A DNA stretch of 59,346 bases, filler included. It is 9 parts of 9 records of this genome, joined end to end, with 100 filler letters (N's around TTAATTAATTAA, not from the genome) between each part and the next. Parts side by side here need not be neighbours in the genome. Positions count along the whole stretch, not along the records: positions 53,047 to 59,346 come from SRR31147125_50285; 8 more parts are not named here. One strand, given 5' to 3'. This document shows, piece after piece, positions 10,692-58,626 of the stretch. A program made the translations under genes and the position numbers. The notes under the pieces are model-generated. The model was not told the DNA's origin, searched no databases, and was given only the letters and a program-made list of their open reading frames with translations. Positions within the stretch are counted from its first letter, which is position 1, and every line of letters begins with the position of its first letter.

Positions 10692-13600
10692 ATGAAATCA
10701 ATATTTCTTCTCAGCATATTACTCCTTACCTCCTCACTAATCTCTTTTTCGCAAAGCGATGATATCAGGTTTAGACGAGTATCGCCTCCGGGTGGATATA
10801 GTTTCCAGGCTATTCATTCGTTTAATAAGGATAAATATGGTTATATATGGATGGGAGGCTTTGATGGCGTTTTTCGATACGACTCGAAAGAGATTGTACG
10901 TTTTACTTATAATCCGGAAGATGTAAATGGTTTGCCCAGCAATACCATAACTGCAATTGCTATTGATAAGGATAATAACATTTGGGTGAGTACAAACAAA
11001 GGCCTTTGCTTATTTAATCATAAAACCCAGGAATTTAACAGGATAAACTACAGCTACGAAAATGGTTCGCAAAGTAACAACAACCTGTTTTCAATTCAAT
11101 TTGACGGGCAAGGTAGATTATGGATTGCCGACGAATATTATTTCGGATATCTCGACCATGAGGAAAATAAACTTATACGAATTACCGATGGACTAAACAA
11201 TGCTCCGCGCCTTCTGTACAACGACGAAAACAATCGTTTATGGCTGGGAACGCTTAATGGTTCAATATTATGGTAAATCATGATGAAGAAAGGGTTGTAA
11301 AAAAAATAGAGGGCCCGGGTTCGTTAGCGCGAACAATTTGCACAAGTACAACAAATATTTGGGTGGGTTACTATAACACGGCGCACGGATGTACGATTTG
11401 AATGGGAATTTAAAAATTCATTATACAAGCTCCGAAAATCCGGAGTACAATATTAAATCGGCCAGTATCCGAAAAATATACAGAGATACACAAGGACAAA
11501 TCTGGATTGGCTCTTATTTTGGATTATTCAAGAGTATAGGAAATAATCTTACACATTTTAACCACGATGAATACGAAGGGCTGCCGCATAACTCAATATT
11601 CGACATTTTTGAAGATCACCAGGGAGGAATTTGGATAGGAACCTGGTCGGGCGGTGTGGCCTATTTGCACCATTCCGATAATAAATTTACAAACTACAAG
11701 CATTCGAAAGCACCGGGAGCAATTTCCGACAATATGATTAGTTCTTTTGCCCAAACACCCAACAAAGAGCTTTATGTGGGAACTGAACTTTTTGGTTTAA
11801 ATAAATTCAATCCTGTTACATCAACTTTTACTCCAATACAAGTTAGAAAAAACAAAGGTATACTAGATATTAAAGCACTTGAGGTTGACACGCAGGGAGG
11901 GCTTTGGATTGCATCGGCTTTTAACGGAGTGTATTATCGCCCAGAAAACAAACAGGCTTTTATACATTTTCCTGCCGGACGAGAAGATGGTAAACATGTT
12001 TCTTCGCGCGAAGCCTATTCTTTGTGTAAATGCGATTCGGGAATGTGGATTGGAACCAACCTTGGCGGACTAAATTTTTATAGCTTCAAAACGAAAAAAA
12101 TTACCTTTAAATCCAGCCAACCTCCATTTAATCAATTTCAAAATTTTAATATCAGAACCATATCGGTTGACTCTCACAAAAACTTATGGTTAGCAACACT
12201 ATCGGGAATCTATAAAATTCATTTACCAACGAACAGTACAACACTATTCAATATTACCTCAAAAAATAATCATAAAACCCAAAGCCAATCGTTCTATTTT
12301 GCCCGGCAATTATCTGATGGAAAAATTTGGATAGGTACCAGTGGCGATGGTGTATATATTTACGACATTGAAACCGATGTACTTAGTTTTTTCGATGCAA
12401 ATGGCCTACTTAAAAGGAAAGATGTTTATGGCATTATTGAAGGGGTTCACAATGATATTTGGATCACTTCCAGCGATGGTTTAATTCTTTATAATACGAA
12501 TGAAAAATCATCGAGAAGATTTGTGATTACTGATGGAATACAGGGCAACCTATTTAACCCTAATGCCATTTTTAAAGATAAAGATGGTAGCTTATATTTT
12601 GGAGGAACCAATGGTTTCAGCCGGCTTGAGCCCAAACCAATACAAACCAACAATAGACCTCCTCATATTCTTCTTAATAATATCGGGGTTAACAACAGAA
12701 AAATTATCCCCGTTCAGACCAGTGTTAGTGAGTATAAAAAAATAATACTAAAACCAAAGGAGACATCGTTTAATTTTCACTTTTCGGCCGATAACTATTT
12801 ATTGCCTGAAAAGAATGAATTCGCTTATCGCTTAAACAATTATGTTGACGAATGGGTACAAGGAGAAACCAATGGTTCGGCAAGCTATGTTAATGTACCT
12901 GCCGGTGAATATATTTTTGAAGTTAAAGCATGTAATAACGATGGAATATGGAACGAAGAGCCGGCAAGGATAAAGGTTGTCATTCAGCAGTTTTGGTACA
13001 AATCTACTGTGGCATTAATCCTTTATTCGCTCATTATTTTTATAATAATTATCGTGGTAATTCGGTTTTTCCGCGAACGTGTAAAATTAAAAAAGGCACT
13101 GTTAATCGAGAAAATGGAACACCAGCAAGAAGAACAGTTGCACGAGATGAAACTGAAATTCTTCACCAATATTTCGCACGAATTCAGAACACCTTTAACA
13201 CTTATTAATGGCCCGGTAAAGCAACTTTTAAACGCCGATAATTTAACCGACACCCAACACAATCAGTTAGACACTGTAAAACGAAACACCAATAGATTGC
13301 TTCAATTAATCAACCAAATTATGGATTTGCGAAAGGTTGAAAAAGGAATGGCCAAATTAAATATTACAAAGGTTGAACTGGTTGATTTTACAAACGAAAG
13401 AATGCTTTCGTTTGCAGAGGAAGCCCGTTCGAAAAACATAAAACTATCGTTTAATTACAACAAAAGTTCGTGCGTAATTGAAGCCGACGAAGAGCAACTC
13501 GATAAAATTATTTTCAACCTGTTATCGAATGCATTTAAATTTACCCCGGCAGACGGAGACATCTCAATAACGCTACATGGCAATAAAACAGAAAATGCCA

Positions 13601-14724
13601 ACTATTTTTCGAACCAATTAAGCTTCGGAAAACTCGACAATGAAGATTATATAGAAATTGCAGTGCTCGATAACGGGCATGGAATAGATAGCCAGGATTT
13701 ACCAAACGTATTCGACCGTTTTGAAAGAGGAAAAACAAAAAAAGCCAGAAACAGTACGGGAATTGGGCTAAACCTTTGTAAAGACTTTGTATTAATGCAT
13801 CGCGGAGTAATTATTGTACAAAGTACTCCGGGTAAAGGAACGCGCTTTTCGGTACAGTTGCCAACCAAACAAAAGGCGCAAAAAATAATGTACCAAAGCC
13901 ACGAGCAAGTAAAAAATATTGAATCGTGGGAAACTTCAGAAAATGTACGTCCACAGCCCCAGGGGCAAGACAAAGGCACTAAAATACTGGTTGTGGAAGA
14001 CAACAAAGATTTACGCGAGTACATTGTTAGTTTACTTCAAAATCATTACTCGGTTTTATTTGCCGAAAACGGTAAACGCGGACTCGACGTTCTGCAAAAC
14101 CAAAATGTTGAGTTGATAATTTCGGATGTAATGATGCCTGAAATGGATGGTTTTGAATTTTGCCAAACCATAAAATCGCAGATAGAAACCAGCCATATTC
14201 CGGTTATATTATTAACCGCTTTATCATCGACAGAAAATACAACAACGGGTTTAGACAAAGGTGCCGATGCTTATATTTCGAAACCTTTCGATGAAAAAGT
14301 TTTACTCTCGCGAATTAATAACCTGTTGACACAACGAAAAAGATTACAGGAAAGTTATGCGAAAAAATTCGTATCGAAACAACCCATAGATGTTGGTAAT
14401 CTCGATAATTATTTTCTGAATAAAATAAATAACGTTATTGAAGAAAACATTACCAACGAAAACTTTACTGTTGATTTGTTAGCGAGCGAAATGGGATTAA
14501 GCAGAAGCCAGCTTCACCGAAAGCTGAAACAAATTTCAGGTCGTTCATCATCGGAGTACATTACAATGGTAAAAATTAAAAAAGCTACCTCTCTGCTCGA
14601 ATCAAAAAATTATAATGTTGATGAAGTTGCCTTTAAAGTTGGATTTAACAGCCATTCGTATTTTAGTAAATGTTTCAAAAAAATACATGGACAAACGCCT
14701 AAAGAATATTTGAAGAGTTTGTAA
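10692..14724 (+). CDS. Hybrid two-component sensor/regulator (beta-propeller, Y_Y_Y, HisKA, HATPase, REC, AraC), frameshift(s) near 11270-11380
   Basis: Reg_prop repeats (DKYGYIWMG, GLPHNSI), FFTNISHEFRTPL, NLLSNAFKF, STGIGL, SDVMMPEMDG, C-terminal AraC HTH (VGFNSHSYFSKCFKK). Confidence 0.93.
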
Positions 14725-40833: not shown

Positions 40834-43800
40834 AAAAATCTGAACCTGTGAACGGAAAACCTCTTTATTTATATGCAGGTAAAATTTATCCAATTTATAT
40901 TGAGTTCTTTGAAAACAAGTTGGATGATGCTTCATTTGTTTTAACCATGGATTTTGAGTCGGGTGATCCTATAAATGATCAACCGGGTTTAGACTTTGAA
41001 AATAGAGTGGTTCCAGCAAGTTATCTTTATCCTTATGCAGTGGGTAGTGAGCCTGAACCTGAATTATTTAGAGATCCTGTGGTAATTGAGACAGCTACAT
41101 TCGCTGGATTTGATGTTACAGCAACAGGAACAGGACCAGCAGATGAAGATATCCTAGTTTCTCTCGATGGAGATTCTGCTACAATTACGGTTGCAAGTGA
41201 TGGTACATGGACACATGTATTTGAAAATGTTGAACCAACTGTAGGCGTTTTAGATAACTCCACTGAACCTGTGGAAACAAGAACTGAAAAAGTAAGAGCA
41301 GTAGATACAAAAGATCCTTTAAACAAGGATAAGATGGATGTTGAAATACCTGAAAAATGGTTAGAGATATCAAGTCCTAATGCAGACTTCTACATTGGTG
41401 GCTTTACAGTAACCATTATTGGTCATTTTATCGAGATGGTAGATATTGAAGTCGATAACGCATCACATTCAGACGATGTGGATATGACCAGTGGTGAGAC
41501 TACTATAGACTTAAATGTAGATGACCCTGTAGGCGATAGAGATGTCGATGTATTAGAAGATGGCCTTGGCAGTTTTGGTGCCAGTAAAACATTCTATAGA
41601 CGTGATGATGTGAAGATTAAAAATAATGATAATTATCCTGAAGAAACAGATAGAGATGATTTTTCATTTAAAGTTTTAGCACATTCTGAAGCGACTTTAG
41701 ATATTACAGGTAGTGATTTCACTGTTGACACGACACCTTTCGATGTCGGTGTAAATGGCAAAGGCTATTTTGATATTGATGTAACAAAAATGGCAGACGG
41801 TATGATTACAGTGACTGCTACAGATCAGTATGAATACAACGGCTTACAAAGAAGTGATTCATTAACATTTGCCTTTGATTATATTATTCCAATTATAATC
41901 ACAGATCCAATCAATTACTTGATTCAAGGTGAGACTTATGCCCTTGAAGGTGACGGTGAAAGTGGTGGAGAAGTAGATGTTACAAGCAATGGATTATTGG
42001 CCTATTCTGAACTAGAACTAGCTGTGGCGGGTGGTACTTGGATGACGTCACCTATAAATGCAGCTGACGTTGAAACTATAACTTTCACAGCAGTTCAAAA
42101 GGTTACAAGAGATCCATTTGGGCCTCAAACGGATGTGACGTATGAAGATACAGATACACACGATGTTGAAATAAGGGCTCAAGTTGAGATTACAACACCT
42201 TTAGATGGTGCCTATATTGTAGACCCTTTCTTTGATATTGAAGGAGAAGGCACAGCAAACAGTAAAGTAAAAGTATTCGTATTCAATGGTGATGACAGAA
42301 CTTCTGGATTGAGAAGAGTTTTGGATACGGATGATGATGGCGATTGGATTTTAGAAGATGTTGATGTGAGTCAATTCTCTGATCCAAATATTAATATTTT
42401 AGTGATTGATAAGCCAGATGGCTTGTTTGAAAGAAACAGAGACCAAATAGAAGTAGAATTACCATCCTTGACACTTGAAAATCCAATGGATGGCGATACT
42501 GTTATAGATGGAACTGTGACAGTTGACGGTACAGTAACGGGTAATGGAACTGTTGTCGTGACAGTTGAAGCCTTAGACTATGATGTATTTGATCCATATT
42601 ATGCATCATATGAGCACCACAAAGTAGAATTAACTGTTGGTGACGGTATTGATGATACACTTGATAAATGGTCTTTAGATGTAGATTTTAGCCTATTAAA
42701 AGGCAATGACTTTAAAATTCATGTGGACAATGGCTTAACTGGTACAAATCCACTGTATCAAGAAGATGAAGCAACGGTTAAAAGACAATGGAAACCAATT
42801 GTTATAGAAGCCATTGATGATTTCTCTTACGGTGTAGATGGCGCGGTTACCATTAGTGGTACAGGTGAAAGATCTGAAAATATGATTCTTAGATTCACGG
42901 GTATTTCAGATTCAGATACATTGCTTGTTCCTGTAGACAATGGTACTTTAAATGAAGGCGATTGGTCATATGAAATGAGCTATTTTGCTCCTACTGACTA
43001 TGATGTAGAAGTAACGGCTGAATATGAAGAAGAGCCAAAACAACTTGAATCAGAAGAATTTATTATGAACTATGTGGATCCAATTGAAGCAACTGCAGGA
43101 TCAAGAGTTGAAGCAGCACCATCGCTTTATGAAAAATTCTTAGACATTAATGGTAGTGCTGAAGATGGATTTACAGTTGAGGCACTTCAAGTCTTCCCAA
43201 CGGGAGAAACAAGTCCTAAGATGACTTTAAGTGGTGATACAGAAGGTTTTGCAGACCCAAGTTTTGATATCAATGATTTAGATATCTCTAAATTACCATC
43301 GGGCTTATATGAAGTTTCCCTTGATTACGTCGACTATGATCCAGCGGCAGTTGAGCCAATGGACAGATTGACAAAAGCAGAATTCTTTGTAGGTAGATAC
43401 CCAGTAATGGTTAAAAATGCATCCTATGATACTGAAGAAGGGGCATTTAAGTTTAGAGTTAAAGGCGATCCTGAAGCAGAGATGAACATTGAAATATTCT
43501 TCACAGCACCTGGTGGTTCTGAAGAAAAAGTTTATCCAGAGTCTGGCAGTCACCAACAAGTGATGGACCAGAGCGCTAAAAAGAATAAACATGATTTTAC
43601 AATCCCATTTGTTCCGTGGCTTGTAGGAGATTACAGAATAGTAGCAACAGATCTTGGAACACCAAATGACAATGATTCTGAACTCTATTGGGATGATATT
43701 GTTGTCACTAAAGAAGTTAAAGATCCTGTTGTAATCGAAAATCCTGTTAACCTACAGAGAGTAGGAGATACAGAAATGGTTAGCGGTACATCAGAACCGT

Positions 43801-45635
43801 TGAGACCTGTTAAATTGTATTATAAAACTGAACAAGAACTAGTATCGGGTGAAGAAATGGCTGAAACTGTAGCTTCTACAGTTGTATGGTTACCTTTATT
43901 TACAGAAAGCCAACCAGCAGTTCAAGCCGAAGCCTTAGCAAATGATTATGGTCAATGGTCCGTTTCAGATGTGACCTTACCACTAAATCCATTTAATAAT
44001 GGAGATGAAATCATCATAAGAGCAGTTGATGATGAGGGTGATGTGGATGTATTAGATGAAGATAGTGATTTAGGCGTCGATGAAGTAGGCGTTTATAAGT
44101 CGGTATTGTTTATCACATCGCCAGATAATGGTACGATTGTTGACTACAGTGTTGTCGTAACGGGTGAAATGGAGCCTGGCAGTAACGTTCAATTATCAGT
44201 TGAAGGCGGTCCAGCATTTACCGTTAATGCAGGTGGACTCCTTGCTGATTCTATGGAACCAAATGACACATGGAGTTTTGACTTCCCACTTGAATCACTT
44301 GATGATGGCGAAATTCAAATTAAAGCTCAAGATTTAAATAACCCAATGCAGCAAGACTGGGTTACAGTTAACAAGTATACAGATGTAACGGTTACATCAC
44401 CAGTGGATCAAAGTGTTGTTACTAGATCATTTACTTTGACGGGAACATCAAGAGCGATCCCAAGTGGTGAAGATGAGTTGACATTTATGATTGATGGCGT
44501 TTCATATCCTAATGCAGGCCTAATCAGAACTGATGGGGTCAATTGGGAACTTGAAGTATATTATGATGGTTTAGTTAATGGACCAATCCAAGTAGTCGTA
44601 ACTGATCCTATGTATCCTGAAAAGTCAGATAGCAAAGAATATCACTTTATCGGTTATGTAGACATCCAGATTCCAGTTGATGGGTCAACAGTATCCTCTA
44701 ACTCTATGTTAGTAAGTGGTATTGCTGTACCAAATCATTTCTTAACTGTAACTGTTGAGGGCACTGGCACAACATTGACATATGATTCTGTTGTGGTATC
44801 TGAGTCCGGACAATGGAGCCTTGGAACAATCAGTATCAGTGGCTTTAGTAATGGTGGTCTTGTGATCACAGCGACAGATGATGAAATGTACTATCCAAGT
44901 GAAGAGACTCAGGATATGAGTTACTATTCTCAAGATGTTCATAACGTTACAAAGTCTGTGACAACAACAACGACAACTACAAGTCGTCGAACAACAACTA
45001 CAACTACAACTGAAGAAACTGTATTGATTGAAGACGATGTAACACCTTTAGGAGCAGTTGAATTCCTAGAGCCTTACATCAAAGGTTTTCCAGATGGAAT
45101 GTTTAAAGCAACAAATGGCTTAACAAGAGCACAAACAGCAGCAATCTTTGCAAGAATTCTCGACTTGAATTTGGAAACACCAAGATTTAATGGTTATTCA
45201 GATTTAATGACAACTGAATGGTCTTACGATTATGTATTATCAGCAACAGATGCAGGTTTATTCTCTGGCTATGATGATGGTACATTTAGAGGCAATGAAT
45301 TTGTAACGCGTGGAGAACTTGCTGACATTATTACAAACTACTGGGCTTACTTGGGCACAGAAGTTGATACAGCAGATGCTGGCCTTACTGATATAGCAAG
45401 TCACTGGGCTAAAGATAGTATCAACCAACTCTTCAATGCAGGCGTCATCAATTCATTTGATGGAACAACTTACAGTCCTGATGAAGATACAAGTAGAGAA
45501 GATGCGGTTGTTATGATCAATCGTCTCATCGCTAGACCAGGGTATGATGCTGAAGACTCAACCTTCCCAGACATTACAAAACACAGAAAAACATTTGGGG
45601 ATATTGAAGCAGCTTCAAGATACTATCAAAAGTAA
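40834..45635 (+). CDS. Large SLH-anchored surface protein with PA14-like segment and Ig-like repeats, 5'-truncated
   Basis: N-terminal YPIYIEFFE...VVPASYLY; repeated I.I..P..G......G..(E)P units; Thr-rich linker; three SLH-like motifs (IKGFPDGMF..LTRAQ, GYDDGTF..VTRGE, TSRED). Confidence 0.85.
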
Positions 45636-45980: not shown

Positions 45981-46147
45981 AAATTTTTGAGAGATGTTAA
46001 TGGTGAAGTATGTGGTGTGATATTTGCTTTATATGAAGATTTTGTTTGTACGGAATTTGTACAGTATAATTTTTGATGTGATTTCAAAGCTCACAAATGG
46101 TAATTTTTTAATACCCGATTCCTGATCAGTAAAAACGGCGGTTAGGT

Positions 46148-49137
46148 TTATGAGAATGATGGGATGAAGAGAGTCACTTTGTTTCGACCTGTCTTTTTGG
46201 ATCGGTAGAGGGCTTCATCCGCTCGCGATACAATGGACTCGATGGAATCATTTTTGGAATATGCGGCTGCGCCGAAGCTGGCCGTTTGATATCCGGCATC
46301 TGAGAAGTTGAATTGTTCGATGGTCACCCTGATATTTTCTGCGGCATCGACAATGCCCACCTCATCCGTATGGGGGCAAACCACAAGAAATTCCTCACCG
46401 CCCCACCGTCCTGCCGTGTCCACTTTTCTGGTGTAATCACTGAGTATTTTGGAAAGTTCGATCAAGAGTTTGTCTCCCACCGGATGTCCGTAGGTATCGT
46501 TGACCCGTTTGAAGTGGTCGATATCCATCATGATCACCCCAAAACAGCTCCCATACCGCTCCGCCCGATCCAGTTCATATTTCATGACGGATTCAAGCTT
46601 GACCCGGTTGTAAAGCCCGGTCAACCGATCCGTAATGGAGAGTCGCTTCAGCTCTCTGTTTTTCTCTTCCAAGGCCAGTTGAGCCTGTTCGAGTTGATGA
46701 AGGGCAACCTCGGTTTTCTTTTTGGTTTGTTGTAATTTTCGGTTCCACCATAAAATCCAACAAATGATAAAACCGGCGGCAATCACCGTTTTCCATATCG
46801 GGCCGTAATCCGTCTTTTCAATGGTTTGCACGGAAAACCACCTTTGCTGAATCTCTGCGTGTTCCTTTGGTGGGATCATGCGGTATCCTTTACTCAGAAT
46901 GGATGGAAGCGGGTTTAGTCGGTTGGGGGCAATAAAACGATAGTCTAAATTTCCATATTTTGTTGGAGCGGAAACTTTGAGGTTATCCATGAAACCGAAT
47001 TCCATCATGTAGTTGGCAATGGCCAGGTTTCCAACATACGCATCTGCTTTTTCTTCGTTCACCAGACGCAGTGCCTCTTTTGAGTTGGCGGCATTGACAA
47101 TGTCGATGTCAGGATAGTCCTGCGCCAACCATTTGGTGATTAGACATCCTTTTTCCATGGCGACTTTTTTTCCTTCCAAATCCTCCAACTTCCCAAAGAA
47201 GATGTTGTTTTTGTTTGTAATGATCATCAGAGGATATGACAGATAGGTGTCCCCAAAGGTAAGATACTGCTCCCTTTCGGGGCTTTTGATCAAATAGAGA
47301 AGTGTATCAAATAGAGCGGACGCGCCTTCATCTTCAAGGATGTTTAACTCTTCGGTCAACGTTGCGTCGAAGGAGACAAACTCTGCAGTAAACCCAATTT
47401 TTTTTGCAATTGATTTGATGTATTCAACAGCGATACCTTCCGGAGCATCTTTTTTTAAAAATTCAAATGGAGGACGATCAGGTCTCACCCTGAATCGAAT
47501 GGTGGGGTGGGAATCTAAAAATGCTTTTTCCTCTAGGGTCAAGTGATTGGGATCGTCATGGCGAACGGATACACTAATCCATTTATTGAGGATTTGTTGA
47601 TGGTCTTCGGGAGAGATGGATTGAGTCGCCTTTTCAAATATCGATTTCAGTAATGGCTCGTCGTTTCGCGTGCCAATGCCGAGCTCCCAGCTCTCATTGA
47701 ACTTTCCACTGATTTTCAACTGCCCGATATACTCCTGCTGAATGTGATATCCAACAGTGGCCAATGTACCGATAAATCCGTACAGCTCTCCTTTCCATAC
47801 CTGGTTCAGCCCTTCATTGATATTGTCTACATCGATCAGATTTATATTCGGGTATCTGTTTCTAAGAATATGAGCATAGGAATAATTTTTTACGATTCCA
47901 ATACGTTTTTGGGTGACGGCGCTGATATTGGGTATCCAATCCCGATGAATCTCCGTGGCAATGACAAGGGGGGTCTTGACATAGGGTGTCGTGAAGTCAA
48001 GATACGCGCATCTTTCGGGGGTGGGCATGACCAAAGAAAAAATGTCGCACTTTCGTTGTTTTCCCAATTCAAGGGATTCTGTCCAGGTTTTTGTGGGAAC
48101 CATTTGAATGGGGATACCGATGGCGGTTTCAAAAAGCTTGAAGTAATCTGCCGTCATACCGATGTGTTGCCCATTGTCATTTTTTTCAAAAGGCATCCAG
48201 ATCGGGTCGATGCACATTTTAATGACCCCTTTGTTTTTCAGATAGGCGCTTTCCTGAGGGGTTGGATCGATGGAGAGTTGACGGGTATGGGCGTTATTGA
48301 TATCGAACATCCATTTTTGTTTGAGTCGGGATCTCTCCTCGGAAGAAATGGCCATGTTCGCTTTTTCCAGGATGGATTTTAAAACGAAATTTCCCTTGGC
48401 AACTCCCATGGGGAGTTCTGTTTTTTTCGGGAGCCCTAAATCATTGACATCAATGATTTTAAGATTGCTTCGCCAGTCGTTTCGGATGTGGTAATTGAGG
48501 GTGGGTAAGCTACCAATGACGCCAAAGGCTTTTTCTTGTGAAATGGCATCGATGGCCTGGCTGGTGCTTTGAGTCAATAAAAGGTCGATCTCCGGAAAGT
48601 TGTTTTTGAGATAGTTGTGGAGGAAGGTTTTTTGGGTGACTGCGATTGTTTTTCCCCTCAACCCTTTCATCGAGGTGATGGACGCGGTCTGCCGAATGGC
48701 AAATCCCGTTAAATAGGTGATGTGGTTGAAGTTGGTAAAATCGATATAAGACGTTCTTTCATTGTTGACGGCGATGTGGGGAATAAGGTCCAGTTGTCCG
48801 TTTTTCAGTAACTCCAGGTAGCGGGGCCATGGCTTTCCACCGATGAATTTGATTGTCACGCCGAGAACGGTACCCATCAGTTGCATATATTCTACGGTGT
48901 ATCCTGCGGGGTTACCATTATCAATAAAATTAAAGGGGGAAAACCGTCCAGATTGGCCACGGTCAATGTTGGATGGTGGTTTAAATAATATCTTTCGGTT
49001 GGGGTCAGATCCAGCTCCACTGCAGGGGCGGCAGAAGTAGGAAAAAATGAGGGAAAAACTGTGAGGAAGAAAATGAGAAGGGATAATTTATAAATATATT
49101 TCAACGCAATATCCGTTTTACTGTTGATACGTCCCAT
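46148..49137 (-). CDS. Diguanylate cyclase with three family-3 solute-binding domains, frameshift near 48935
   Basis: Signal region in ORF 48892..49137 joins 46148..48886; three L(T)..E..(Y/F)L..H-type SBP repeats; TM; TDRLTGLYNR, DIDHFKRVND, RWGGEEF. Confidence 0.88.
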
Positions 49138-49371
49138 GTTGTCTAACTGTGTTGTCTACTGTCTAACCGGCTGATTTCAAGTATCAAGTAAGTTCCCGGT
49201 ATCGAATTTCGTTTATTATCACAAAATCTAATGTTTGTGACTAAATTTTTTACACCTTTTGAACATGGGCAGCATCGACGGATGTCACGGATAGCAACTA
49301 TTATCAGGTTAAATTGGTTGACGGGTGGCGTTGGGTTTTCTTTTTCAATTTGTCCATAAATTTGAAAATCG

Positions 49372-50306
49372 TCAATTGTTTTTGGTCTTGGCTGCGATAA
49401 TGTCGTGGATGGGTCGATAATTTTCATCGGTCACTTCCACAAAATTCACCATTCCCATATTGTTGAGCATTTGCATCACCTGTGGGGCGGATGAGAACAT
49501 CACGCGTTTGATTTTCGCTTTTACGGCGTCATCGACACCGGCACTGAAGACAAAGGGGTCATAGTGAATGGGGTGGGATTGCCAAAGAACTTTTACCTGT
49601 TCCGCAGAGAGATCCCCTTGAATATCGCTTCATCGATCCGGGCGGAGGAAACAAATGCTCCATCTACCCGATTGCGAACAACGGCTTGGATGGAGCGATC
49701 ATGGGAGCCGGTATAGATCAATGTGCGGAAAAATTCATTCAGCGGTTTTCCAATCCGTTTGGAGAAGGCCATTTGGGGAATCACCGAGCCGGATGTGCTG
49801 GATGGATCGGTAAAGGCGATTTTTTTTCCTTTTAAGCTTTCAATGGAGTTGAATTCCAAATTCTTGAGTGTAAAGAGAACGGAATGGTAGTAGCTGCCCC
49901 GGGGGGTGAGAAATCCTTTTTTCCGGGCAAGGGATGCAAAGGCCTCTATTTCGTTATCTCTTGCCTTTGCTTTGGCATAGGCAGCCGGGCCTAAGATGGC
50001 AAAATCGATTTCCCTGGAGAGGATGCCTTCAATGACGGCATGGTACGATTTGGGGCGAATGATATGAATCGGTCGATTCAGCGTCTCTTCCAGAAGATCA
50101 AATAGGGGGATCATTTCTTTAAACTGTTGATCCACATTTTTCGTGGGAACAAGGGAAAAGTTAAGCGGGGACTTTGGGGATTGTTCCGTGTCTGTTTCAG
50201 TTGCCAAAGCAGGCGCTGCAGACTTGAAAAAGATGGTCATGGATAGATACGAAAACAGTAGAAATGGAACAAACAGGGGAATACGGTGTTTGAATCGGGG
50301 TGTCAT
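49372..50306 (-). CDS. PhnD/PtxB-like phosphate/phosphite/phosphonate-binding protein, frameshift near 49610
   Basis: SYHAVIEG, AFTDPSSTSG, GSHDRSI; C-terminus read manually (VLWQSHPIHYDPF...ENYRPIHDII) to stop at 49372. Confidence 0.82.
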
Positions 50307-52590
50307 GCGGCAAGACTCCTGACTGGGCTGATAATGAATTCACGAATATTTTTTTCCGGTACCGGTCTGCTGAAGAAATATCCCTGCACCTGATCACATC
50401 CGGCCACTTTGAGATTGATCAGCTGCTCATGGGTCTCCACCCCTTCGGCAACAACGGTTAAATTCAGTTTTTTCGCAAGCATGATGGTAGAGGATACAAT
50501 GGGATTATCCAATCGCGCATTTCGAATATCCTGGACAAAGCTGCGGTCTATCTTGAGGGTATTGATGGGCAGGGATCGGATGTGATCGAGGCTTGAGAAG
50601 CCTTTACCGAAGTCGTCTAAAGCAATTTTGACACCGCCGGAGAAGAGGGCGTTCAAGTTGCTGATGACGATGTCCGGCTTTTCAATAAATGCATTTTCCG
50701 TGATTTCAATTTCAATGGCATCCGGTTTTAATTGAAACCGGGAAAGGGTTTGAAAAAAACGGGCGGCATATGTGGGATCTTTCAATTCCCGGGGGAGACG
50801 TTCACGGCAACGGGGACGATTTCAATCCCCCGGCGTTGCCATTGACGCTGCTGGCGGCAGGCGCTGTTCAGCACCCATAGATCCAGATCGACAATCAGGC
50901 CGGTCTCTTCCGCAATCTCGATAAAGTCCGATGGGAAGATCAGCTGACCGTTCGGATGTTCCCATCGAATCAGGCTCTCCAACCCGATCACCCGATAGTC
51001 ATCCAATCGTACCTTGGGTTGATAGTGGAGGACAAACTCATCATTTGCAATGGCTGCAGGCATCCGCTGCTCCAACTCGAATTTTTGGATGGAGACGGTG
51101 TTGAGGCTGGCATCGAAGAAGCTGTAACGCCCCCTGCCGGATTGTTTGGATTGATACATGGCCGCATCGGCATGAAGGAGCAGGGTGTCGATATCGGCTC
51201 CGTCTCTGGGGTAGACGGCAATCCCGATGCTTGGACTGGTGTTGATCCGATGACCGTCCAGGTTTTCGCACGGCTTGGATATTTCGGATATGATCTTTCC
51301 CGCAATGGGGGAGATGTTCTGCTCGTTGGGCATGTCCGTCAGCATGATGACAAATTCATCTCCGCCGAATCTGGCGACTATGTCGGACTCCCGGGTGCAG
51401 GCCTTGAGTCGATCGGCCACGGTTTTGAGAAGAAGATCGCCCACTCGGTGCCCCAGAGTGTCGTTTATTTTTTTGAATCGATCCAGATCGATGAACATCA
51501 CCGCATAGCTGAGCCGGTTTCGTTTGGCAAGAAGAAGGGTCTGCTCCGCCATGGTGACAAACAGGCGACGGTTGTAGAGCTCCGTCAGTGCATCCATGGA
51601 TGCGGCTTTGGTTGTCGCCTTATGTTCCAGCGCCAGCTTTTGAATCAGGGCTCTTTTTTCTCGGTTGGATGCTGAGAGGGCATGTACGTATTCATTGATC
51701 CGGTCCACCAGTTTCAGCATCAGAAACACCGCCAGCAGGCAACAGGCACTGAGAATGGTCAAGGTCCAGATCAGCTTTTGCTTATGCAGATTGAATTCCG
51801 AGAAAAATTCATTCAGCTCCTGACTGACGGATACGATGAAAGGAAACTCCCGAACCGCAAGATAAGTCAGGTGATACTTTCCCGCCCCCGATCCGGAAAA
51901 AGAGTAAATTCCTGATCCGGAGCGGTTTCGAACGGTTTCCGTCAAGGCTTGCCTGGGCAGATCGATTCCGAGGATGAGACCGCCGCTTTCAAAACATGCC
52001 AGGGAGTCCCCCGCATGGGTGTGGATCATGATTCTACCGGTTTTTCCCAGATCGATGCTTTGAAACAGGTTCAAAAGATATCCCATATCCAGTTCCAGCA
52101 GCATGGCGCCTTTTGTTCGTTCCCTTTCCATCAACGGGGCCAGAAAATGGATTTGAAAGAGGCTTTCGGCAACGTCATTGTCGGAAAAGACGAATTGTGG
52201 GATGCCGCTGTCAATGACGTGATGGATGTGTTCTTTAAATTCTCTTTTTTGTTTTGTGCTTTTGAAAAGGGGGGAGGATTGATAAAAGCGCTCGCCGTTC
52301 TTCTGGTACAGGACCACCCGCGTAAAGGTTCTTTCGCCATAAAGAAATGCCGTGATGTCATCCAGGCTCTTTTGCTGAAAATCAGTGAGCCATCGCAGGG
52401 CGAACAACTCGAGGATCTGTTTTTGACTGACGATCTGATACAGATTTTCAGCCAGTACACCGGTCAAATTGTTCTGCTGACGCTTTAACTCATCCAAAAG
52501 GGTAGTTTTGTTCCGTTGCAGCTGTTGGTACATCACTCCCCAGGATATTATAATTGTTACGGTTCCGAAAAGGATCAGCCCGATTTTCAA
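50303..52590 (-). CDS. Membrane Cache-like GGDEF-EAL protein, frameshift near 50790; true start possibly ATG 52703 with another frameshift
   Basis: Two TM helices flanking a periplasmic domain, ARFGGDEF, YQPK, ESLIRW, VNVS|, EITE, DDFGKGFSS, KIDRSF, AEGVE, QGY. Confidence 0.87.
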
Positions 52591-53051
52591 AATAGTATGG
52601 TTGGCGGACCTTTTCTTTTTTTACGGCCCGAGTAAAGTGTCGTGACTGCTTTTGAACTCCGGCGGATATGATTTAAGTGTTCCCCGATTGTGTCAAATTG
52701 CATTGTTTCAGTGTATTGCATCTCTATGTTTATCAATATTGCATAATATTTGTTGCATGCCATCCGTCAGGATCAGAATGAAAAAAAGGTTATAAAAAAA
52801 ATGACCTGAAATAACAATAGATGGGTGGAGAAAACGCCTGAATTCGTGTGATTTTAATGCAATCCTAACAAATTGAATGGGAGTGAAGATAAAAAAATAA
52901 AAATTGGGCAAAATGTTGCTTAGGAACCGGTCTTAAATAACTTGCCNNNNNNNNNNNNNNNNNNNNNNNNNNNNNNNNNNNNNNNNNNNNTTAATTAATT
53001 AANNNNNNNNNNNNNNNNNNNNNNNNNNNNNNNNNNNNNNNNNNNNTTTTT

Positions 53052-54782
53052 TTATTTAACTACAATGCTAACCCTCATATTAGAGTCAATATCATCTAAT
53101 GTAAAGCTTCCATTTCCATCAACACTTCCAACGTGATATAGTAAATTAGATGTGTTTGATAGAGTTGCCTCCAAATCACCACTATAAATTTTTGGCCCCG
53201 CTAAATCTTCATATGTATAGTTATTCAAATCGATTGACCCAAGTTTATAAACCTCCCCGTTTTCTTCTGAGGTAAACCACGTATCGTTACTTAGTTTCAT
53301 TCCTTCCGGTGCTTTAGTAAATTCAGATAATAAGTTTGATACTGCAAATTTATGAAAAACATCCTCAAAATCATATTGCGAATAACCAAGTTCAGCCAAG
53401 GCATTTGTAACAGCCTCTGTATCAGTTTCACTATTTTGAACCACTGCCTTTATAAAATCAGCACCACCAAAATTTCTAATCAAGTAGGCTCCAAATGCAT
53501 AATTTATAGAATAATCTCCTAGTGTCCCTGACCACTCTGTTAATGTATTCGTATTTAAAAAATTATAGTATGGAAGCCTTCCATTTCCATTATTTTTTGA
53601 TCCACTTGTTTTATCATCGCCATTTATTCCTCTTGGACCTAAATTATTTGACTTTGACGACACTAGATCTTGTATTGCCATTGAGCACAATTCATTCAAC
53701 CAAGTTTTTGATGACGAACCATTCAATGCATATTTCTGATAAAAATTAATCAAATGTTGAAACTCATGTGCAACTGTTGAAATCATCACTTGCTGGTATT
53801 TTCCTTCTATACTCCAACTACTATCTTCTGTTTTAACAAATAATGGTGCGTCAATATTGAGCATAACCCTTTCATTTGAAGTACTATAAAAATACTGCAA
53901 AAAATTATCTCTTCCATAAAAATAACCATAGGTTTTCGCTCCACTTTCTAAACCGTCATTATCAATATCGAACAACAAAATATCTATCTCATCTGTTTCA
54001 TCCATTAAAAATAAGTTGCTGTGACTTCCCCAATGAGAACCGCATATATTTGTTACCCATTCAAATATATCATTATTATCACCTGGTTTTAAAAATTTAT
54101 ATGCCAATTCACTAACCATGGTTTGTGTCACAGGATATTCGCTATGATTCCAAAAGTCGTCTGCTACCCAAACATTTAAGCTTACACCATTTGCTGTCAC
54201 TACTTTCCTATTAGTTGCAGAAACAACGTTGTTATCTGAATCATAAAAATCTTTTGTCTCACCAAGAAATGAAGAACTACTTCTCGATATAGAACTTTGC
54301 ATTATACTCTTTGAAATTTTTGAAGTTACTCCCTCTATAACTGGATTCTCATTAAATTTATTTACTTTTTCATTCTCTTTCTTCTCATAAACCTCATCTT
54401 CTTCACTACTAATCACATTTTTAGACACGTTTAATATACTGTCTGGCTGTATAACCTTGCTCGAACTCATGCTAGTTGAAATGCTTGGAGATACTAAAGT
54501 AGAATCATCATTTGGATTTGTTAACACAACATAGACATCTCTTTCATCCTCTGTTGAGACTGTAAAATCTAAGTTTCCATTATGACTTGTTACCTCAATA
54601 ACTTCCGCACCGGTATTTTTGTTGATACTTACATTAATTAATTCATCACTTGTTTCTTCACATACAACATCCCCATTTAGGCTAAAATTAATAAAGCCAA
54701 CTGATGGCTTGTCACTTCCAACATCATCACACCCAGTTAATAGCAAACAAAATAATATCCCTAGTATTTTTTTGACTGTCAT
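53052..54782 (-). CDS. M30 (hyicolysin-like) zinc metallopeptidase lipoprotein, paralog 1
   Basis: Lipobox LTGC; GYFYGRDNF, STVAHEFQHLINF, WLNELCS, YAFGAYLIRNFGG. Confidence 0.85.
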   Translation of the reverse strand: MTVKKILGILFCLLLTGCDDVGSDKPSVGFINFSLNGDVVCEETSDELINVSINKNTGAEVIEVTSHNGNLDFTVSTEDERDVYVVLTNPNDDSTLVSPSISTSMSSSKVIQPDSILNVSKNVISSEEDEVYEKKENEKVNKFNENPVIEGVTSKISKSIMQSSISRSSSSFLGETKDFYDSDNNVVSATNRKVVTANGVSLNVWVADDFWNHSEYPVTQTMVSELAYKFLKPGDNNDIFEWVTNICGSHWGSHSNLFLMDETDEIDILLFDIDNDGLESGAKTYGYFYGRDNFLQYFYSTSNERVMLNIDAPLFVKTEDSSWSIEGKYQQVMISTVAHEFQHLINFYQKYALNGSSSKTWLNELCSMAIQDLVSSKSNNLGPRGINGDDKTSGSKNNGNGRLPYYNFLNTNTLTEWSGTLGDYSINYAFGAYLIRNFGGADFIKAVVQNSETDTEAVTNALAELGYSQYDFEDVFHKFAVSNLLSEFTKAPEGMKLSNDTWFTSEENGEVYKLGSIDLNNYTYEDLAGPKIYSGDLEATLSNTSNLLYHVGSVDGNGSFTLDDIDSNMRVSIVVK

Positions 54783-54950
54783 ATCCCTTCCCTTTCGTAT
54801 AATTTATTCAAAACCCTAGTTTTAATTATAACACATTTTTAATTGCTTTTGTAATTAAAATAAGTGGTCAATTTCCGAATCAGCCACCAGTTTTCAGACG
54901 TGTGATCTGCTTTTACTTAATAGATTCATTATAAGAAATTTCAAAAAAAT

Positions 54951-54999
54951 AGCGGGTGACCAACAAGTTAATTTTTAACTAACTTATTGGTCACCTGCT
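54951..54999 (-). terminator. Long-stem intrinsic terminator
   Basis: AGCGGGTGACCAACAAGTTA / TAACTTATTGGTCACCTGCT with U-tract on minus. Confidence 0.75.
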
Positions 55000-55010
55000 C
55001 TAATATATAG

Positions 55011-55487
55011 TTACTTTTTTAAAAATTTTAATGGATTTTCATTAAACTCTTGAACTTTAATGTTATCTTTTTTTCTATAGTATATATTCTCTTCTGTATT
55101 TACTTTTTCTATTTTTACATATGCGTTCCCAGTCTCCGATTCATCTAATATCATTATCTGAATATTATATTTATTCACCTTTTCAAATAGCTCTAATAGG
55201 ATTGGTTTTTCATTTAGAGATTTTTCTACAACTCTGTCCATAGTTTCATTATAAACTAATATAACCGGGGAGACTGTTGGCTGTCCGTATATTTTTGATT
55301 TAACACCAGATACTGACACGGTATACAGAGCATTCTCTCCCTCAATTTCATACCAATACACATTTTTTTTATTATTAAACTCCAATTCTTCCCACTGTTT
55401 TTCTCCAACAAAGCTAACTCTCTTGATGGAATCAGCAAAAGAAGATATAGAAAATATAATTAGTAGTAGCAAAACAAGTTTTTTCAT
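55011..55487 (-). CDS. Secreted protein with predicted beta-rich domain and C-terminal M30-propeptide-like motif
   Basis: Signal peptide MKKLVLLLLIIFSISSFA; GAGGGGG RBS 12 nt after upstream stop; ends KKDNIKVQEFNENPLKFLKK. Confidence 0.8.
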   Translation of the reverse strand: MKKLVLLLLIIFSISSFADSIKRVSFVGEKQWEELEFNNKKNVYWYEIEGENALYTVSVSGVKSKIYGQPTVSPVILVYNETMDRVVEKSLNEKPILLELFEKVNKYNIQIMILDESETGNAYVKIEKVNTEENIYYRKKDNIKVQEFNENPLKFLKK

Positions 55488-55499
55488 TTTTGTCCCCCT

Positions 55500-57269
55500 C
55501 TATTTAATAACTATCGATACTTTAATATCATCATCAATGTTATCAATTACGTACCTTTCCGACCCAGATATATCATTTCCAGCCTTATAGTAGGTATTAG
55601 ACGTTGCATAAAATCGGCTTGGAAGACTAGAGTATACGTACGGTCCTTGTGAAGAATTATAAGTGTAGTTATACAGATTAATAGAGCCAAGACTGTACTC
55701 TTCACCATTTAAAGTAGAGCTAAACCATGTTCCACTATTAAGCTCCATATTAGTCGGTGCATCTGTAAAGTTGGACAGTAGATTCGCAGTTCCAAATTTA
55801 TTTAACACAGTATCAAAGTCATAGGAAGAATAACCCGTTTCGGCCAATGCATCTGTTACAGCCTGGTAGTTGATTTCATCATTTTGAACTAACGTCTTAA
55901 GAAAATCAGCTCCACCAAAATTTCTAGTTAAATATGCACCAAAAGCATAATTAATTGCATAACTTTTTAACACATCACTACCTGATCCCCAGGAAGTCAA
56001 AGGTATTTCATTATAATAATTATATAGCGGTAGTCTTCCCAATGTATTGCTAGAACTTCCTGCTGTTGCATCGTCATATGTAACTCCTCTAGGCCCATCA
56101 GCTAGAATTTTCGAAGCAACTAAATCCTCTACAGCCATTGAAGCCAATTCATTTAACCAAGTTTCCGAACCATCAACATTTCCATTTTTTACGTTTTTTT
56201 GATAGAAATTAATCATATGTTGAAATTCATGTGCCAGAGTTGAAACTATCTCCTTCGGTGAGGTGTCAGTAATCTCCCATGAATCTCCCTCTTTATCTGA
56301 TAATAAAGGAGCATCTATATAGAACATAATTTTTTCATTTGTATATTCTAACTGCCAATATTCAGAGCTTGTATCTTTAACATAGTTATCTAAAGCATAG
56401 TAATAACCATAAACTCTACTCTCTCCACTTGTAGGAACTCCGTCTCCATCTAAATCAGCAAGCAATATATGAATATCTGATGTAGGATCAATTAGGTATG
56501 ATAACTGCGATGTATCATAACTTCCCCACGGCAAACCTACTATATTCGTAACCCAATCATATATATCGTTATCATCGCCACTGATCAAAAATTTATCAGC
56601 CATTGCTTCTATCATACTACTATTAACCTTACCAGTTCCACTACCATATGAGGAATCTTCCACCCATACATAAAGGTTAACGTCTCCAACTGTCACTTTT
56701 TTTCTAAGTGTAGCATCCACTTCATCTGTTCCGTTATCATTCGTTGAGCTAGTGTCAGCATAAAAAGTTAGACTGTCATTAACTGAATACGATTCCGTTC
56801 TCTCTGGTATTGATATACTCTTACTAGAGCTAAGTTTTGGACTTCCAATAAACGGATTTTCCCTAAATTCTTTTGCGGTAGGATTGTCTATTCTAGTAAC
56901 TCCGCTTATCTCAACCTCTTCTTTTCCAACTGTCTCTCCTCCACCCATTGTAGCAACTGATTTTGCATTTTTTGTAATGTTTGGAGAACTAACAGAACTT
57001 AATTTGTTTGTATTTGTAAACACAAAATATACATCTCGCGCGCTATCCGTTGAAACTGTTAAATCTATAGCCCCACTATGTTCACTTATCTCTATTATTT
57101 TATAATCTAAGGATGACGAAACACTTTCGACAATGGGATCATCTGCAGATACAGTACTTTGCTGAGTTTGTCCAGTTGAATCTGTTGTTGTTGTTCCGCT
57201 TTCCTCATTATCTCTACATGAGATAATGATTAAGCATAATAGCATCATTAATATTTGTTTTATTTTCAA
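55500..57269 (-). CDS. M30 (hyicolysin-like) zinc metallopeptidase lipoprotein, paralog 2
   Basis: TTG start after GGGGG RBS; lipobox IISC; STLAHEFQHMINF, WLNELAS, YAFGAYLTRNFGG; similar to paralog 1 along its length. Confidence 0.85.
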   Translation of the reverse strand: MKIKQILMMLLCLIIISCRDNEESGTTTTDSTGQTQQSTVSADDPIVESVSSSLDYKIIEISEHSGAIDLTVSTDSARDVYFVFTNTNKLSSVSSPNITKNAKSVATMGGGETVGKEEVEISGVTRIDNPTAKEFRENPFIGSPKLSSSKSISIPERTESYSVNDSLTFYADTSSTNDNGTDEVDATLRKKVTVGDVNLYVWVEDSSYGSGTGKVNSSMIEAMADKFLISGDDNDIYDWVTNIVGLPWGSYDTSQLSYLIDPTSDIHILLADLDGDGVPTSGESRVYGYYYALDNYVKDTSSEYWQLEYTNEKIMFYIDAPLLSDKEGDSWEITDTSPKEIVSTLAHEFQHMINFYQKNVKNGNVDGSETWLNELASMAVEDLVASKILADGPRGVTYDDATAGSSSNTLGRLPLYNYYNEIPLTSWGSGSDVLKSYAINYAFGAYLTRNFGGADFLKTLVQNDEINYQAVTDALAETGYSSYDFDTVLNKFGTANLLSNFTDAPTNMELNSGTWFSSTLNGEEYSLGSINLYNYTYNSSQGPYVYSSLPSRFYATSNTYYKAGNDISGSERYVIDNIDDDIKVSIVIK

Positions 57270-57376
57270 TGTTTTCCCCCTAATGTTTATATAATAAATC
57301 TTATTATATTCTTCCCCATATAGACATTATAAAGGATTTCTCTTAAAAAGGGAATAATTTTAGCAAAAAATACAAA

Positions 57377-57395
57377 AGCGAGGAATAAACCTCGC
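57377..57395 (-). terminator. Intrinsic terminator
   Basis: GCGAGG...CCTCGC stem with A-run on the left (U-tract on minus). Confidence 0.6.
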
Positions 57396-57400
57396 CTAAT

Positions 57401-57481
57401 CTAAAAGGATTCTAATATTTCAACTACATCCTTTAATTCTTTTTGTTTCTCTATTGGAAGAAAATCAATTGATGTTTTCAT
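57401..57481 (-). pseudogene. N-terminal remnant resembling MNT-HEPN fusion proteins
   Basis: MKTSIDFLPIEKQKELKDVVEILESF-stop, resembling the MKTSxDxLPxxKQxELxxxVEI start of nucleotidyltransferase-HEPN fusions (from memory, not searched). Confidence 0.55.
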
Positions 57482-57510
57482 AAATGTGATCCCCGATGAT
57501 GTTTTTAAGT
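57476..57510. repeat. 35-bp direct repeat, copy 1
   Basis: TTTCATAAATGTGATCCCCGATGATGTTTTTAAGT; 33/35 identical to 58534-58568. Confidence 0.9.
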
Positions 57511-58539
57511 GATATTTTTCAATTCCTTTTCTATATCTTCAATTGCAGGTAAGGTTGATTTTAAGTTATCAGGTAATGCTCTTGTTAATTCATATTCTGA
57601 TATTCCTATTGGCTTATTCATATCTTTTAACGCATATTCCGCGAAAACTTTATTTTTTTCCTCACACAATATTAATCCGATTGTAGGATTATCATTTTCA
57701 TTTTTTAATATATCGTCCACCGCAGAACAATAAAAATTCATTTTACCTGCATATTCTGGCTTAAACGAACCTTTCTTTAGCTCAATAACTACAAAACATC
57801 TTAATTGAATATTATAAAATAAAAGATCTAAATAGAAATCTTGGTTAGTAATTGTTAACTTATATTGTCTTCCAAGAAAAGCAAACCCCTTCCCTAATTC
57901 TAACAGAAATTTTTCCAAATACTTGATTAATTCTGTTTCAAGCTCTCTTTCTTGAAATGGTTCTGTAAGTGTTAAAAAATCAAATACATAGGGATCTTTT
58001 AAACTTTCTCTCACCAAATCAGATTGTGGATTAGGTAGAGTCATATCAAAATTATGTGTTATCTTTCCCTGCCTCCTGTGAAGTTCATTTTTTATCATTG
58101 TATTTAACGTATTCCTACTCCAACCATTATTATTTATTTGTTCGATGTACCAAAGCCGTATTGAAACGTTCTTAATTTTTTGCATTAAAAGTACATTATG
58201 CCCCCATGGAATACTTGAAATTGCTTCTTTATATTTTTCTAATTGGGAAACAGCTTGTTTCCCAATTGAATATTCTTTATACAATTGAACCATAAATTTA
58301 ATGTTTCTTTCAGAAAAACCTTTAATTTCAGGTAATTCATTTTTTATATCTCTAGATAACCTTGGGATAACTCCTTTTCCCCAACCTTCCTCTAGCTGTT
58401 TCATATATATCATTTCACCAATATCCCAGTACATAAGAATCATTTCTGAGTTTACTGATAAAATTGCTTTAGTTTGAGCAGCTCTAATTCTATTTCTTAT
58501 ATTATCAAAAATTGTGGCATATAATTTAATATCTTTCAT
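57505..58539 (-). CDS. yhcG: YhcG/DUF1016 PD-(D/E)XK nuclease-fold protein
   Basis: VNSEMILMYWDIG, KGFSERN, IPWGHN, WSRNTL, KDPYVFDFL, FLLELGKGFAFLGRQ, VVIELK, GKMNFY. Start ATG 58539 after RBS. Confidence 0.92.
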   Translation of the reverse strand: MKDIKLYATIFDNIRNRIRAAQTKAILSVNSEMILMYWDIGEMIYMKQLEEGWGKGVIPRLSRDIKNELPEIKGFSERNIKFMVQLYKEYSIGKQAVSQLEKYKEAISSIPWGHNVLLMQKIKNVSIRLWYIEQINNNGWSRNTLNTMIKNELHRRQGKITHNFDMTLPNPQSDLVRESLKDPYVFDFLTLTEPFQERELETELIKYLEKFLLELGKGFAFLGRQYKLTITNQDFYLDLLFYNIQLRCFVVIELKKGSFKPEYAGKMNFYCSAVDDILKNENDNPTIGLILCEEKNKVFAEYALKDMNKPIGISEYELTRALPDNLKSTLPAIEDIEKELKNIT

Positions 58540-58568
58540 AAATGTGACCCCCGATAATGTTTTTAAGT
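58534..58568. repeat. 35-bp direct repeat, copy 2
   Basis: TTTCATAAATGTGACCCCCGATAATGTTTTTAAGT; contains the RBS and ATG of yhcG. Confidence 0.9.
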
Positions 58569-58626
58569 TTAAAAAATAACGGCGCTTTTCATAATTAATT
58601 ATAGCTTTTATGGGTGGGATGTGCAA

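Follow-up and report, generated by a model that had tools for sequence, protein, structure and literature searches.

The stretch of DNA analysed here, 59,346 nucleotides (nt) long including filler and hereafter called the window, carries two genes for zinc metallopeptidases of the M30 family, peptidase 1 and peptidase 2, and between them the gene of a small exported protein of 158 amino acids. By sequence comparison, the C-terminal tail of this small protein is a copy of a conserved segment that precedes the catalytic domain in this clade of M30 enzymes. The mimicry is real and stands above chance, and a role of the small protein as an inhibitor acting in trans is plausible. The evidence suggests that the small protein is a dedicated partner of M30 peptidases, possibly an inhibitor.

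The small-protein tail and the pre-catalytic segment of M30 enzymes

The tail aligns without gaps with the pre-catalytic segment of peptidase 1. Residues 129-153 of the small protein and residues 124-148 of peptidase 1 are identical at 13 of 25 positions, with an expectation value (E) of 5e-5 in BLASTP, which was run as a single comparison with adjustment for composition. Direct reading of the narrower stretch, residues 131-152 against residues 126-147, gives the 13 identities in 22 positions that a first-pass annotation of the sequence had reported; its statement that the protein ends at FNENP is wrong, since six further residues (LKFLKK) follow at the C-terminus. When the family of the small protein is compared with an M30 profile by hhalign, the tail is aligned with the segment and nothing else is aligned (E 0.0025, probability 12%). 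The beta domain of the small protein has no similarity to the N-terminus of the peptidases that hhalign detects, and the earlier remark that the small protein resembles the peptidases nowhere else holds. At the DNA level the tail and the segment of peptidase 1 are about two thirds identical, so that the tail is not a recent copy; gene conversion with peptidase 1 in the recent past is ruled out on this ground.

The same tails are found with a profile built from 20 alignment columns around the segment of 23 M30 enzymes from outside the window. The target set comprised 3,034 sequences, namely the open reading frames (ORFs) of at most 260 amino acids from the loci and the window together with five members of the small-protein family. 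The five best matches are P0066 (E 6.6e-5), P0069 (1e-4), P0070 (1.1e-3), P0065 (0.14) and the small protein of the window (0.46), and the next match is unrelated (E 2). Every one of these five matches falls in the C-terminal tail, and the window protein has in addition a short match at residues 36-40. The score of the window protein is not significant alone, whereas the result for the family is. The three copies in the window all have Glu after F[NR] (FNE, FNE and FRE), and the M30 protein P0003 and the small protein P0065 share SV.EFNA (SVREFNA and SVQEFNA, respectively).

The segment has the consensus I-x-x-F-N-x-x-P in M30 enzymes, and N144, the Asn of FNENP in peptidase 1, is at least 90% conserved among 25 sequences. 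This alignment consists of both window enzymes and 23 of 63 homologs, picked by hand for similar length. The pattern F[NR]xxP lies 176-220 residues before HExxH in 20 of 77 M30 ORFs (75 from genome loci and two from the window), and about 2 of 77 would be expected by chance according to a rough estimate made by hand. A second match to the pattern occurs in just one of these 20 ORFs, farther upstream at 268 residues. As judged from these alignments, the segment is a conserved and positionally fixed pre-catalytic element of this M30 clade. The staphylococcal M30 sequence aligns to the FRENP segment over a non-significant stretch only (2.1 bits). The first-pass annotation had placed the segment of peptidase 2 correctly at 56853-56894 and that of peptidase 1 at 54343-54408, one base off its correct position, 54342-54407; both are on the minus strand. 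With the BLASTP match, the conservation of the segment and the first five ranks in the profile search, the resemblance that it had pointed out is borne out.

The ORF calls agree with the earlier description, and the assignment of the two flanking proteins to M30 is supported by HEFQH in both and by the Pfam model PF10460 (Peptidase_M30, gathering cut-off 25.8 bits), which matches peptidase 1 with 91.5 bits (E 5.3e-26) and peptidase 2 with 100.4 bits (E 1e-28). The two enzymes are paralogous, with 43% identity. Both have N-termini of the lipoprotein type (LLTGC in peptidase 1 and IIISC in peptidase 2), and the lipobox Cys, C18 of peptidase 1, is invariant across the 25 aligned sequences. H339, E340, H343 and E364 (numbering of peptidase 1) are invariant in this alignment and in another of 45 sequences; we take HExxH together with the downstream Glu, E364, to provide the zinc ligands in the gluzincin pattern. 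Longer M30 homologs (P0004, P0006, P0007, P0009 and P0011; 761-939 amino acids) carry the extra cis domains PF13287, PF13290 and PF00041, an observation relevant to the idea that M30 enzymes gain binding domains by more than one route.

An AlphaFold 2 (AF2) model of peptidase 1, based on the 45-sequence alignment, has a mean predicted local distance difference test score (pLDDT) of 86.3. In a Foldseek search the model matches lugdulysin (7bb8_A) with E 2.2e-14 and a template modelling (TM) score of 0.72 by target; as modelled, peptidase 1 folds like this M30 enzyme, whose structure has been solved. An N-terminal beta domain (strands within residues 32-103) is followed by a linker with pLDDT below 50 (residues 109-131), and the catalytic domain begins at about residue 176. 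The segment forms an ordered island between these domains: the block of residues 141-150 has a pLDDT of 82 and the flanking blocks have 43-65. A second weakly modelled stretch follows the segment (pLDDT 57-61).

The small protein, its family and its place beside M30 genes

The small protein contains no HExxH, as stated in the first-pass annotation, and has no Pfam or NCBIfam match above cut-off. Pfam includes a model for serralysin inhibitors (Inh/AprI), and the small protein has no match to this family in Pfam or NCBIfam at E <= 0.1. Its signal peptide is modelled by AF2 as a helix (residues 4-12) followed by residues of low pLDDT. Because the signal peptide contains no Cys, the protein is not a lipoprotein. 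The AF2 model, based on an alignment of seven sequences, is a moderate one with an overall pLDDT of 69. Its core (residues 23-128) consists of nine beta strands, with pLDDT values by block of mostly 82-88 and one of 66. The best structural neighbours of the core in Foldseek are the PPC domain of a collagenase (5sv5, the first match, with E 2.1e-5 and a TM score of 0.67 by target) and the collagen-binding domain of ColG (1nqj). The program phmmer links the small protein to P0067 (E 1.3e-6), a PPC-repeat protein with four copies of PF04151 (E 1.9e-33), and a protein-atlas search with the small protein returns PPC as a weak lead. PF04151 itself has no match at E <= 0.1 in the small protein and five relatives. 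According to the model and these searches, the core is a PPC-like beta-sandwich, which agrees with the beta-rich carrier described earlier.

The tail is modelled as disordered, with pLDDT below 50 at residues 132-149 and values of 43-51 in the region of the motif. Because the segment has a pLDDT of 82 in peptidase 1 and 43-51 in the small protein alone, it may become ordered by packing on the enzyme, the two values coming from alignments of different depth (45 and 7 sequences).

The family of the small protein comprises seven distinct sequences, all metagenomic and 30-36% identical to the window protein: the window protein itself, P0065, P0066, P0068, P0069, P0070 and L001, a metagenome locus. 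A word-based homolog search found just a 99% identical copy, an exhaustive search retrieved P0065, P0066 and P0068 as well as the PPC-repeat protein P0067, and a profile search added P0069 and P0070; a metagenome scan with the alignment of the family yielded one locus (L001). A scan of genome contigs with the same alignment gave 241 pattern matches, none of which was confirmed. ORFs and signal peptides are intact in all seven sequences. The motif is kept in five of the seven, which end in [VI]-Q-[EKD]-F-N-x-[ND]-P plus a few residues and share a K-D-x-P / E-N-I-Y stretch ahead of the motif. P0069, the closest relative of the sublineage without the motif (L001:515-970 and P0068), keeps it. A frameshift was ruled out as the origin of the lost motif in L001, where stops abound in both other frames.

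In the window, the ATG of the small gene follows the stop of peptidase 2 by 12 nt on the same strand, and the start of peptidase 1 lies 228 nt past the small gene. A terminator-like hairpin is present after the small gene and none is present between peptidase 2 and the small gene. The 12-nt gap and the strong terminator had both been recorded in the first-pass annotation; the gap and a hairpin of 19 pairs with a T run are indeed there. Because of this short gap and of the terminator past the small gene, the small gene appears to be transcribed together with peptidase 2, and peptidase 1 separately, as far as layout tells. A search of sequencing runs listed no RNA run with a match, and the single run that matches in full may be the source sample. 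All three proteins carry export signals.

A second locus is L001, where the small ORF (GTG at 515, with the family-aligned ATG at 521) starts 3 nt past the stop of an M30 gene that is seen as its C-terminus only. Two further singletons, the small protein P0065 and the M30 protein P0003, were each seen on a single Logan contig, 15,908 bp long in both cases; the two almost certainly share this contig, which would probably make a third linked locus. The remaining members of the family are on contigs of 735-4,282 bp.

Behind M30 genes elsewhere stands another family of small proteins, exported or lipoproteins, that is not related to the window protein; its 36 ORFs are spread over 35 of the 80 M30 genome loci. 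Most of these proteins have about 90-130 amino acids (range 89-196); they contain G-N-E-P-[HF]-T and, in many cases, G-P-G-F-P. Of the 66 loci in which at least 300 nt are available downstream, 29 have a member immediately after the M30 gene, with gaps mostly of -4 to +12 nt. Because of these 29 loci, M30 genes can be said to be often paired with a small exported partner. The common downstream family has no significant sequence match in Pfam, NCBIfam or PDB, and the leads from the protein atlas are OB-like or DUF5818-like folds. Homology between it and the small protein of the window was considered and ruled out, since hhalign aligns the signal peptides only. The family of the window protein fills the same downstream slot as the common family, whose members are candidate cognate partners of M30 enzymes, possibly potempin-like. 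The features discussed here are collected in Table 1.

Table 1. Positions of the genes, motifs and structural features of the peptidase module in the window, with examples of the common downstream family at other M30 loci
Feature	Position	Strand	Basis and remarks
Peptidase 2, M30 zinc metallopeptidase, 589 amino acids	55500..57269	-	ORF call; PF10460, E 1e-28; first gene of the apparent two-gene unit
Small exported protein, 158 amino acids	55011..55487	-	ORF call; member of a rare family of seven sequences
Peptidase 1, M30 zinc metallopeptidase, 576 amino acids	53052..54782	-	ORF call; separate gene beyond a 228-nt spacer
HEFQH zinc-binding motif of peptidase 2, residues 347-351	56217..56231	-	H, E and H invariant in homolog alignments
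HEFQH zinc-binding motif of peptidase 1, residues 339-343	53754..53768	-	H339, E340 and H343 invariant
Pre-catalytic segment of peptidase 2, RIDNPTAKEFRENP, residues 126-139	56853..56894	-	212 residues before HExxH
Pre-catalytic segment of peptidase 1, SEEDEVYEKKENEKVNKFNENP, residues 126-147	54342..54407	-	196 residues before HExxH
GAGGGGG, ribosome-binding-like stretch ahead of the small gene	55494..55500	-	Read from the DNA of the 12-nt gap
Signal peptide of the small protein, about residues 1-19, ...SSFA/D	55431..55487	-	Sequence reading; cleavage site presumed
Beta-sandwich core of the small protein, residues 23-128, PPC-like or collagen-binding-domain-like	55104..55421	-	AF2, Foldseek, phmmer
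Tail segment of the small protein, TEENIYYRKKDNIKVQEFNENP, residues 131-152	55032..55097	-	Copy of the peptidase segment; modelled as disordered alone
Intrinsic-terminator-like hairpin, 19 pairs, then T run	54955..54995	-	Apparent end of the unit of peptidase 2 and the small gene
Common downstream family, examples	L014:6656-6934; L053:5734-6033; L024:6667-6951; 26 further loci		

Three genome loci (L064:4461-8096, L065:547-4852 and L070:4446-7956) likewise contain two M30 genes in tandem, so that the arrangement of two peptidases in the window is not unique. Just upstream of peptidase 2, positions 57505-58626 (minus strand) encode a protein with DUF1016_N and the YhcG PDDEXK nuclease domain, and a terminator-like hairpin at 57397-57376 separates its gene from peptidase 2. 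The G+C content falls from 0.44-0.50 (positions 46001-52000) to 0.32-0.36 (52001-58000) across the peptidase module; because the whole window is a mosaic in this respect (0.34-0.53), this drop alone is no proof of an island. Elsewhere on the plus strand, the window encodes a protein of 1,595 amino acids with an SLH domain (40848-45635) and a hybrid two-component regulator with Reg_prop, Y_Y_Y, HisKA, HATPase_c, Response_reg and AraC-type helix-turn-helix domains (11389-14724).

Candidate roles of the small protein

The small protein is exported and soluble, combines a PPC-like beta-sandwich with a flexible C-terminal tail, and would serve as a dedicated partner of the neighbouring M30 peptidases. 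Its tail, a copy of approximately KD-x-P-x-[IV]-x-x-F-N-x-N-P, which is found between the N-terminal beta domain and the catalytic domain of the peptidases, may dock on the catalytic domain at the site of the enzyme's own segment. The docked tail would keep the enzyme inactive, as a pro-segment supplied in trans, in the export compartment that the proteins share. Sequence likeness and gene arrangement argue for such a trans-acting mimic of a pro-segment that holds M30 enzymes inactive, and we give this reading a substantial chance, somewhat below even. We know of no principle among metallopeptidases by which a short motif mimics the enzyme's own pre-catalytic segment.

However, several observations weigh against this mechanism. 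The segment in the model of peptidase 1 consists of two short helices (residues 138-145 and 147-151) and forms no extended strand that would fill the cleft; its position in or near the HEFQH cleft is a proposal, and no result places it there. The similarity of the small protein to peptidase 2, with which it is co-transcribed by layout, is weak alone (7 of 13 positions, E 0.055). Among the 18 M30 ORFs in genome loci that bear the motif, 8 are accompanied by the unrelated partner family and 10 by neither partner; because the segment is present with either partner or with none, it must have an intramolecular role of its own in the enzyme first. The tails of two family members are degenerate, reading TNDFGKEL in P0068, which represents a cluster of 6 member sequences, and TNNYDKEL in L001. 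L001 still follows an M30 gene directly, so that pairing can do without the motif.

The distribution of the family also speaks against the proposed mechanism. No member was found in 802 sampled genomes (401 + 401) and 5 further genomes; these searches gave weak partial matches only (best E 3.3e-5 per genome), none of them over the tail, and among the 16 loci obtained from the 802 genomes, the 10 that were inspected include none beside an M30 gene. The first-pass annotation had suggested that the motif be searched for with hidden Markov models (HMMs) and its linkage to M30 genes checked: there is linkage in the window, at L001 and probably for P0065, whereas HMM and regular-expression scans of the 80 M30 genome loci reveal no member.

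With the motif lost from the tails of L001 and P0068, and with helices modelled for the segment, the simple picture of a plug in the cleft is weakened. What stands of the trans-inhibitor module proposed earlier is the sequence mimicry, the conservation, the linkage and the beta fold of the core. A complex prediction for residues 160-576 of peptidase 1 and residues 20-158 of the small protein gave a score of 0.00 in two ESMFold2 runs without alignments and speaks neither for nor against binding. A wider statement would be that small exported proteins from two or more unrelated families, each co-transcribed with its peptidase, regulate the M30 enzymes of environmental diderm bacteria, and that the family in the window re-imposes latency in trans through a short copy of the latch segment on a PPC-like carrier; we regard this as rather doubtful.

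Alternatively, the tail may act as a docking adaptor that tethers a PPC-like or collagen-binding-like domain to an exosite of the peptidase, namely the spot on which the enzyme's own segment packs; the enzyme would thereby gain a substrate- or surface-binding domain in trans, and catalysis would not be blocked. This would agree with the likeness of the core to PPC domains and to the collagen-binding domains of collagenases, with the link to P0067, and with several M30 homologs that carry C-terminal domains of a binding type in cis (PF13287, PF13290, PF00041 and PF01833); the modelled helices of the segment, which do not resemble a substrate-like strand, fit as well. However, the peptidases are lipid-anchored and the small protein is soluble, so that the gain in targeting is not obvious, and P0068 and L001 do without the motif. 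Such an adaptor is unlikely on balance.

The segment may also be an element that a third party recognizes, or a site of processing or autoprocessing, in which case the small protein would be a co-processed substrate or a decoy. Both types of protein have the segment in exposed, poorly ordered linkers, and in the small protein it is so close to the C-terminus that clipping would free a short peptide. However, the segment is an ordered island in the peptidase 1 model, which argues for packing and not for a free loop, no candidate for a third party is linked in the loci, and the approximately 15-20 conserved residues exceed typical cleavage sites in length. We consider this improbable.

The mimicry and the linkage are equally compatible with a helper in folding or export, in which the small protein supplies the function of a pro-segment during folding or maturation of the peptidase, after which it would be released or degraded. 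In several peptidase families the pro-segments serve as intramolecular chaperones, and PPC domains have been described as pre-peptidase domains that are removed after secretion. However, both peptidases keep their own segment in cis, so that there is no obvious need for another one in trans during folding. We regard this role as quite improbable. That the tail has no function, being what remains of a peptidase gene duplicated in part or resembling the segment by chance in a sequence rich in K, E and N, would suit the low G+C content, the tiny family and its two members without the motif, but is the least likely explanation and a very improbable one in view of the composition-adjusted BLASTP match, the first five ranks in the independent profile search, the intact ORFs and signal peptides in seven divergent sequences, and the tail DNA, which has diverged from the segment of peptidase 1 by about one third.

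M30 is a poorly studied peptidase family. If the tail of the small protein docks at the site of the segment, the element that confers latency, or acts as a latch, in this M30 clade would be identified, a ready-made peptide lead for specific M30 inhibitors would be at hand, and modular mimicry by short motifs would be added to the means by which bacteria control their own exported proteases. The far more common second partner family behind M30 genes suggests that such pairing holds in general.

Comparison with known systems

The first-pass annotation knew of no such M30 inhibitor, and a narrow search of the literature likewise found no inhibitor or partner of M30 enzymes. Lugdulysin (PDB 7bb8 and 7bb9) and hyicolysin share the family and the fold of the enzymes that flank the small gene. 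The staphylococcal enzymes are made with an N-terminal pro-region, which is removed in hyicolysin. In 7bb9, an inactive mutant of lugdulysin, 399 residues are modelled, against 360 in 7bb8, the wild type. However, lugdulysin is just 17-19% identical to the window enzyme in the structural alignment, and the staphylococcal enzymes are not lipoproteins. To our knowledge, no partner gene has been described for either of them. A possible role of the staphylococcal M30 enzymes in osteoarticular infection is suggested in a review (PMC6429511).

The potempins of the KLIKK-peptidase system of Tannerella forsythia are exported proteins of 98-132 amino acids that are encoded beside the genes of their target peptidases and co-transcribed with them (PMC9890683). 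They form stable complexes with the peptidases and protect the envelope of the producer; they are outer-membrane lipoproteins encoded by upstream genes, with OB-folds or eight-stranded up-and-down beta-barrels, and they inhibit by means of loops wedged in the cleft (PMC9890683). The window follows the same two-gene logic, in which the gene of a small exported protein adjoins a peptidase gene (PMC9890683). However, the window protein is longer, has no Cys or lipobox and is encoded downstream of the peptidase gene. Its core is a PPC-like sandwich, and its candidate contact is a disordered tail that copies a segment of the enzyme. In addition, the targets of the potempins are not M30 enzymes. The likeness to potempins is closer for the common downstream family, which adjoins the M30 gene in 29 of 66 loci, than for the window protein.

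Emfourin (M4in) is an inhibitor whose gene lies in the protealysin operon and which forms a 1:1 complex with the enzyme at its active-site region (PMC9505478). As in the window, the genes of a metallopeptidase and of its protein inhibitor, here a candidate, are combined in one operon (PMC9505478). Unlike the window enzymes, protealysin belongs to family M4 and the pair is described as intracellular, and the available part of the source describes no pro-segment mimicry (PMC9505478).

The PPC domain (PF04151) resembles the small protein in the modelled fold of the core and is linked to it in sequence through the PPC-repeat protein P0067; it is also a domain tied to secreted peptidases. However, PPC usually occurs in cis at the C-terminus of the peptidase, whereas the core encoded in the window stands alone and bears an extra tail.

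Free-standing inhibitors related to the pro-region of their target are classified in MEROPS as I9, for subtilases, and I29, for enzymes like cathepsin L. These inhibitors are homologous to the whole pro-domain, and their targets are serine or cysteine peptidases. In contrast, the similarity between the window protein and its putative targets is confined to a segment of approximately 20-25 residues, which an unrelated domain carries, and those targets belong to the M30 metallopeptidases.

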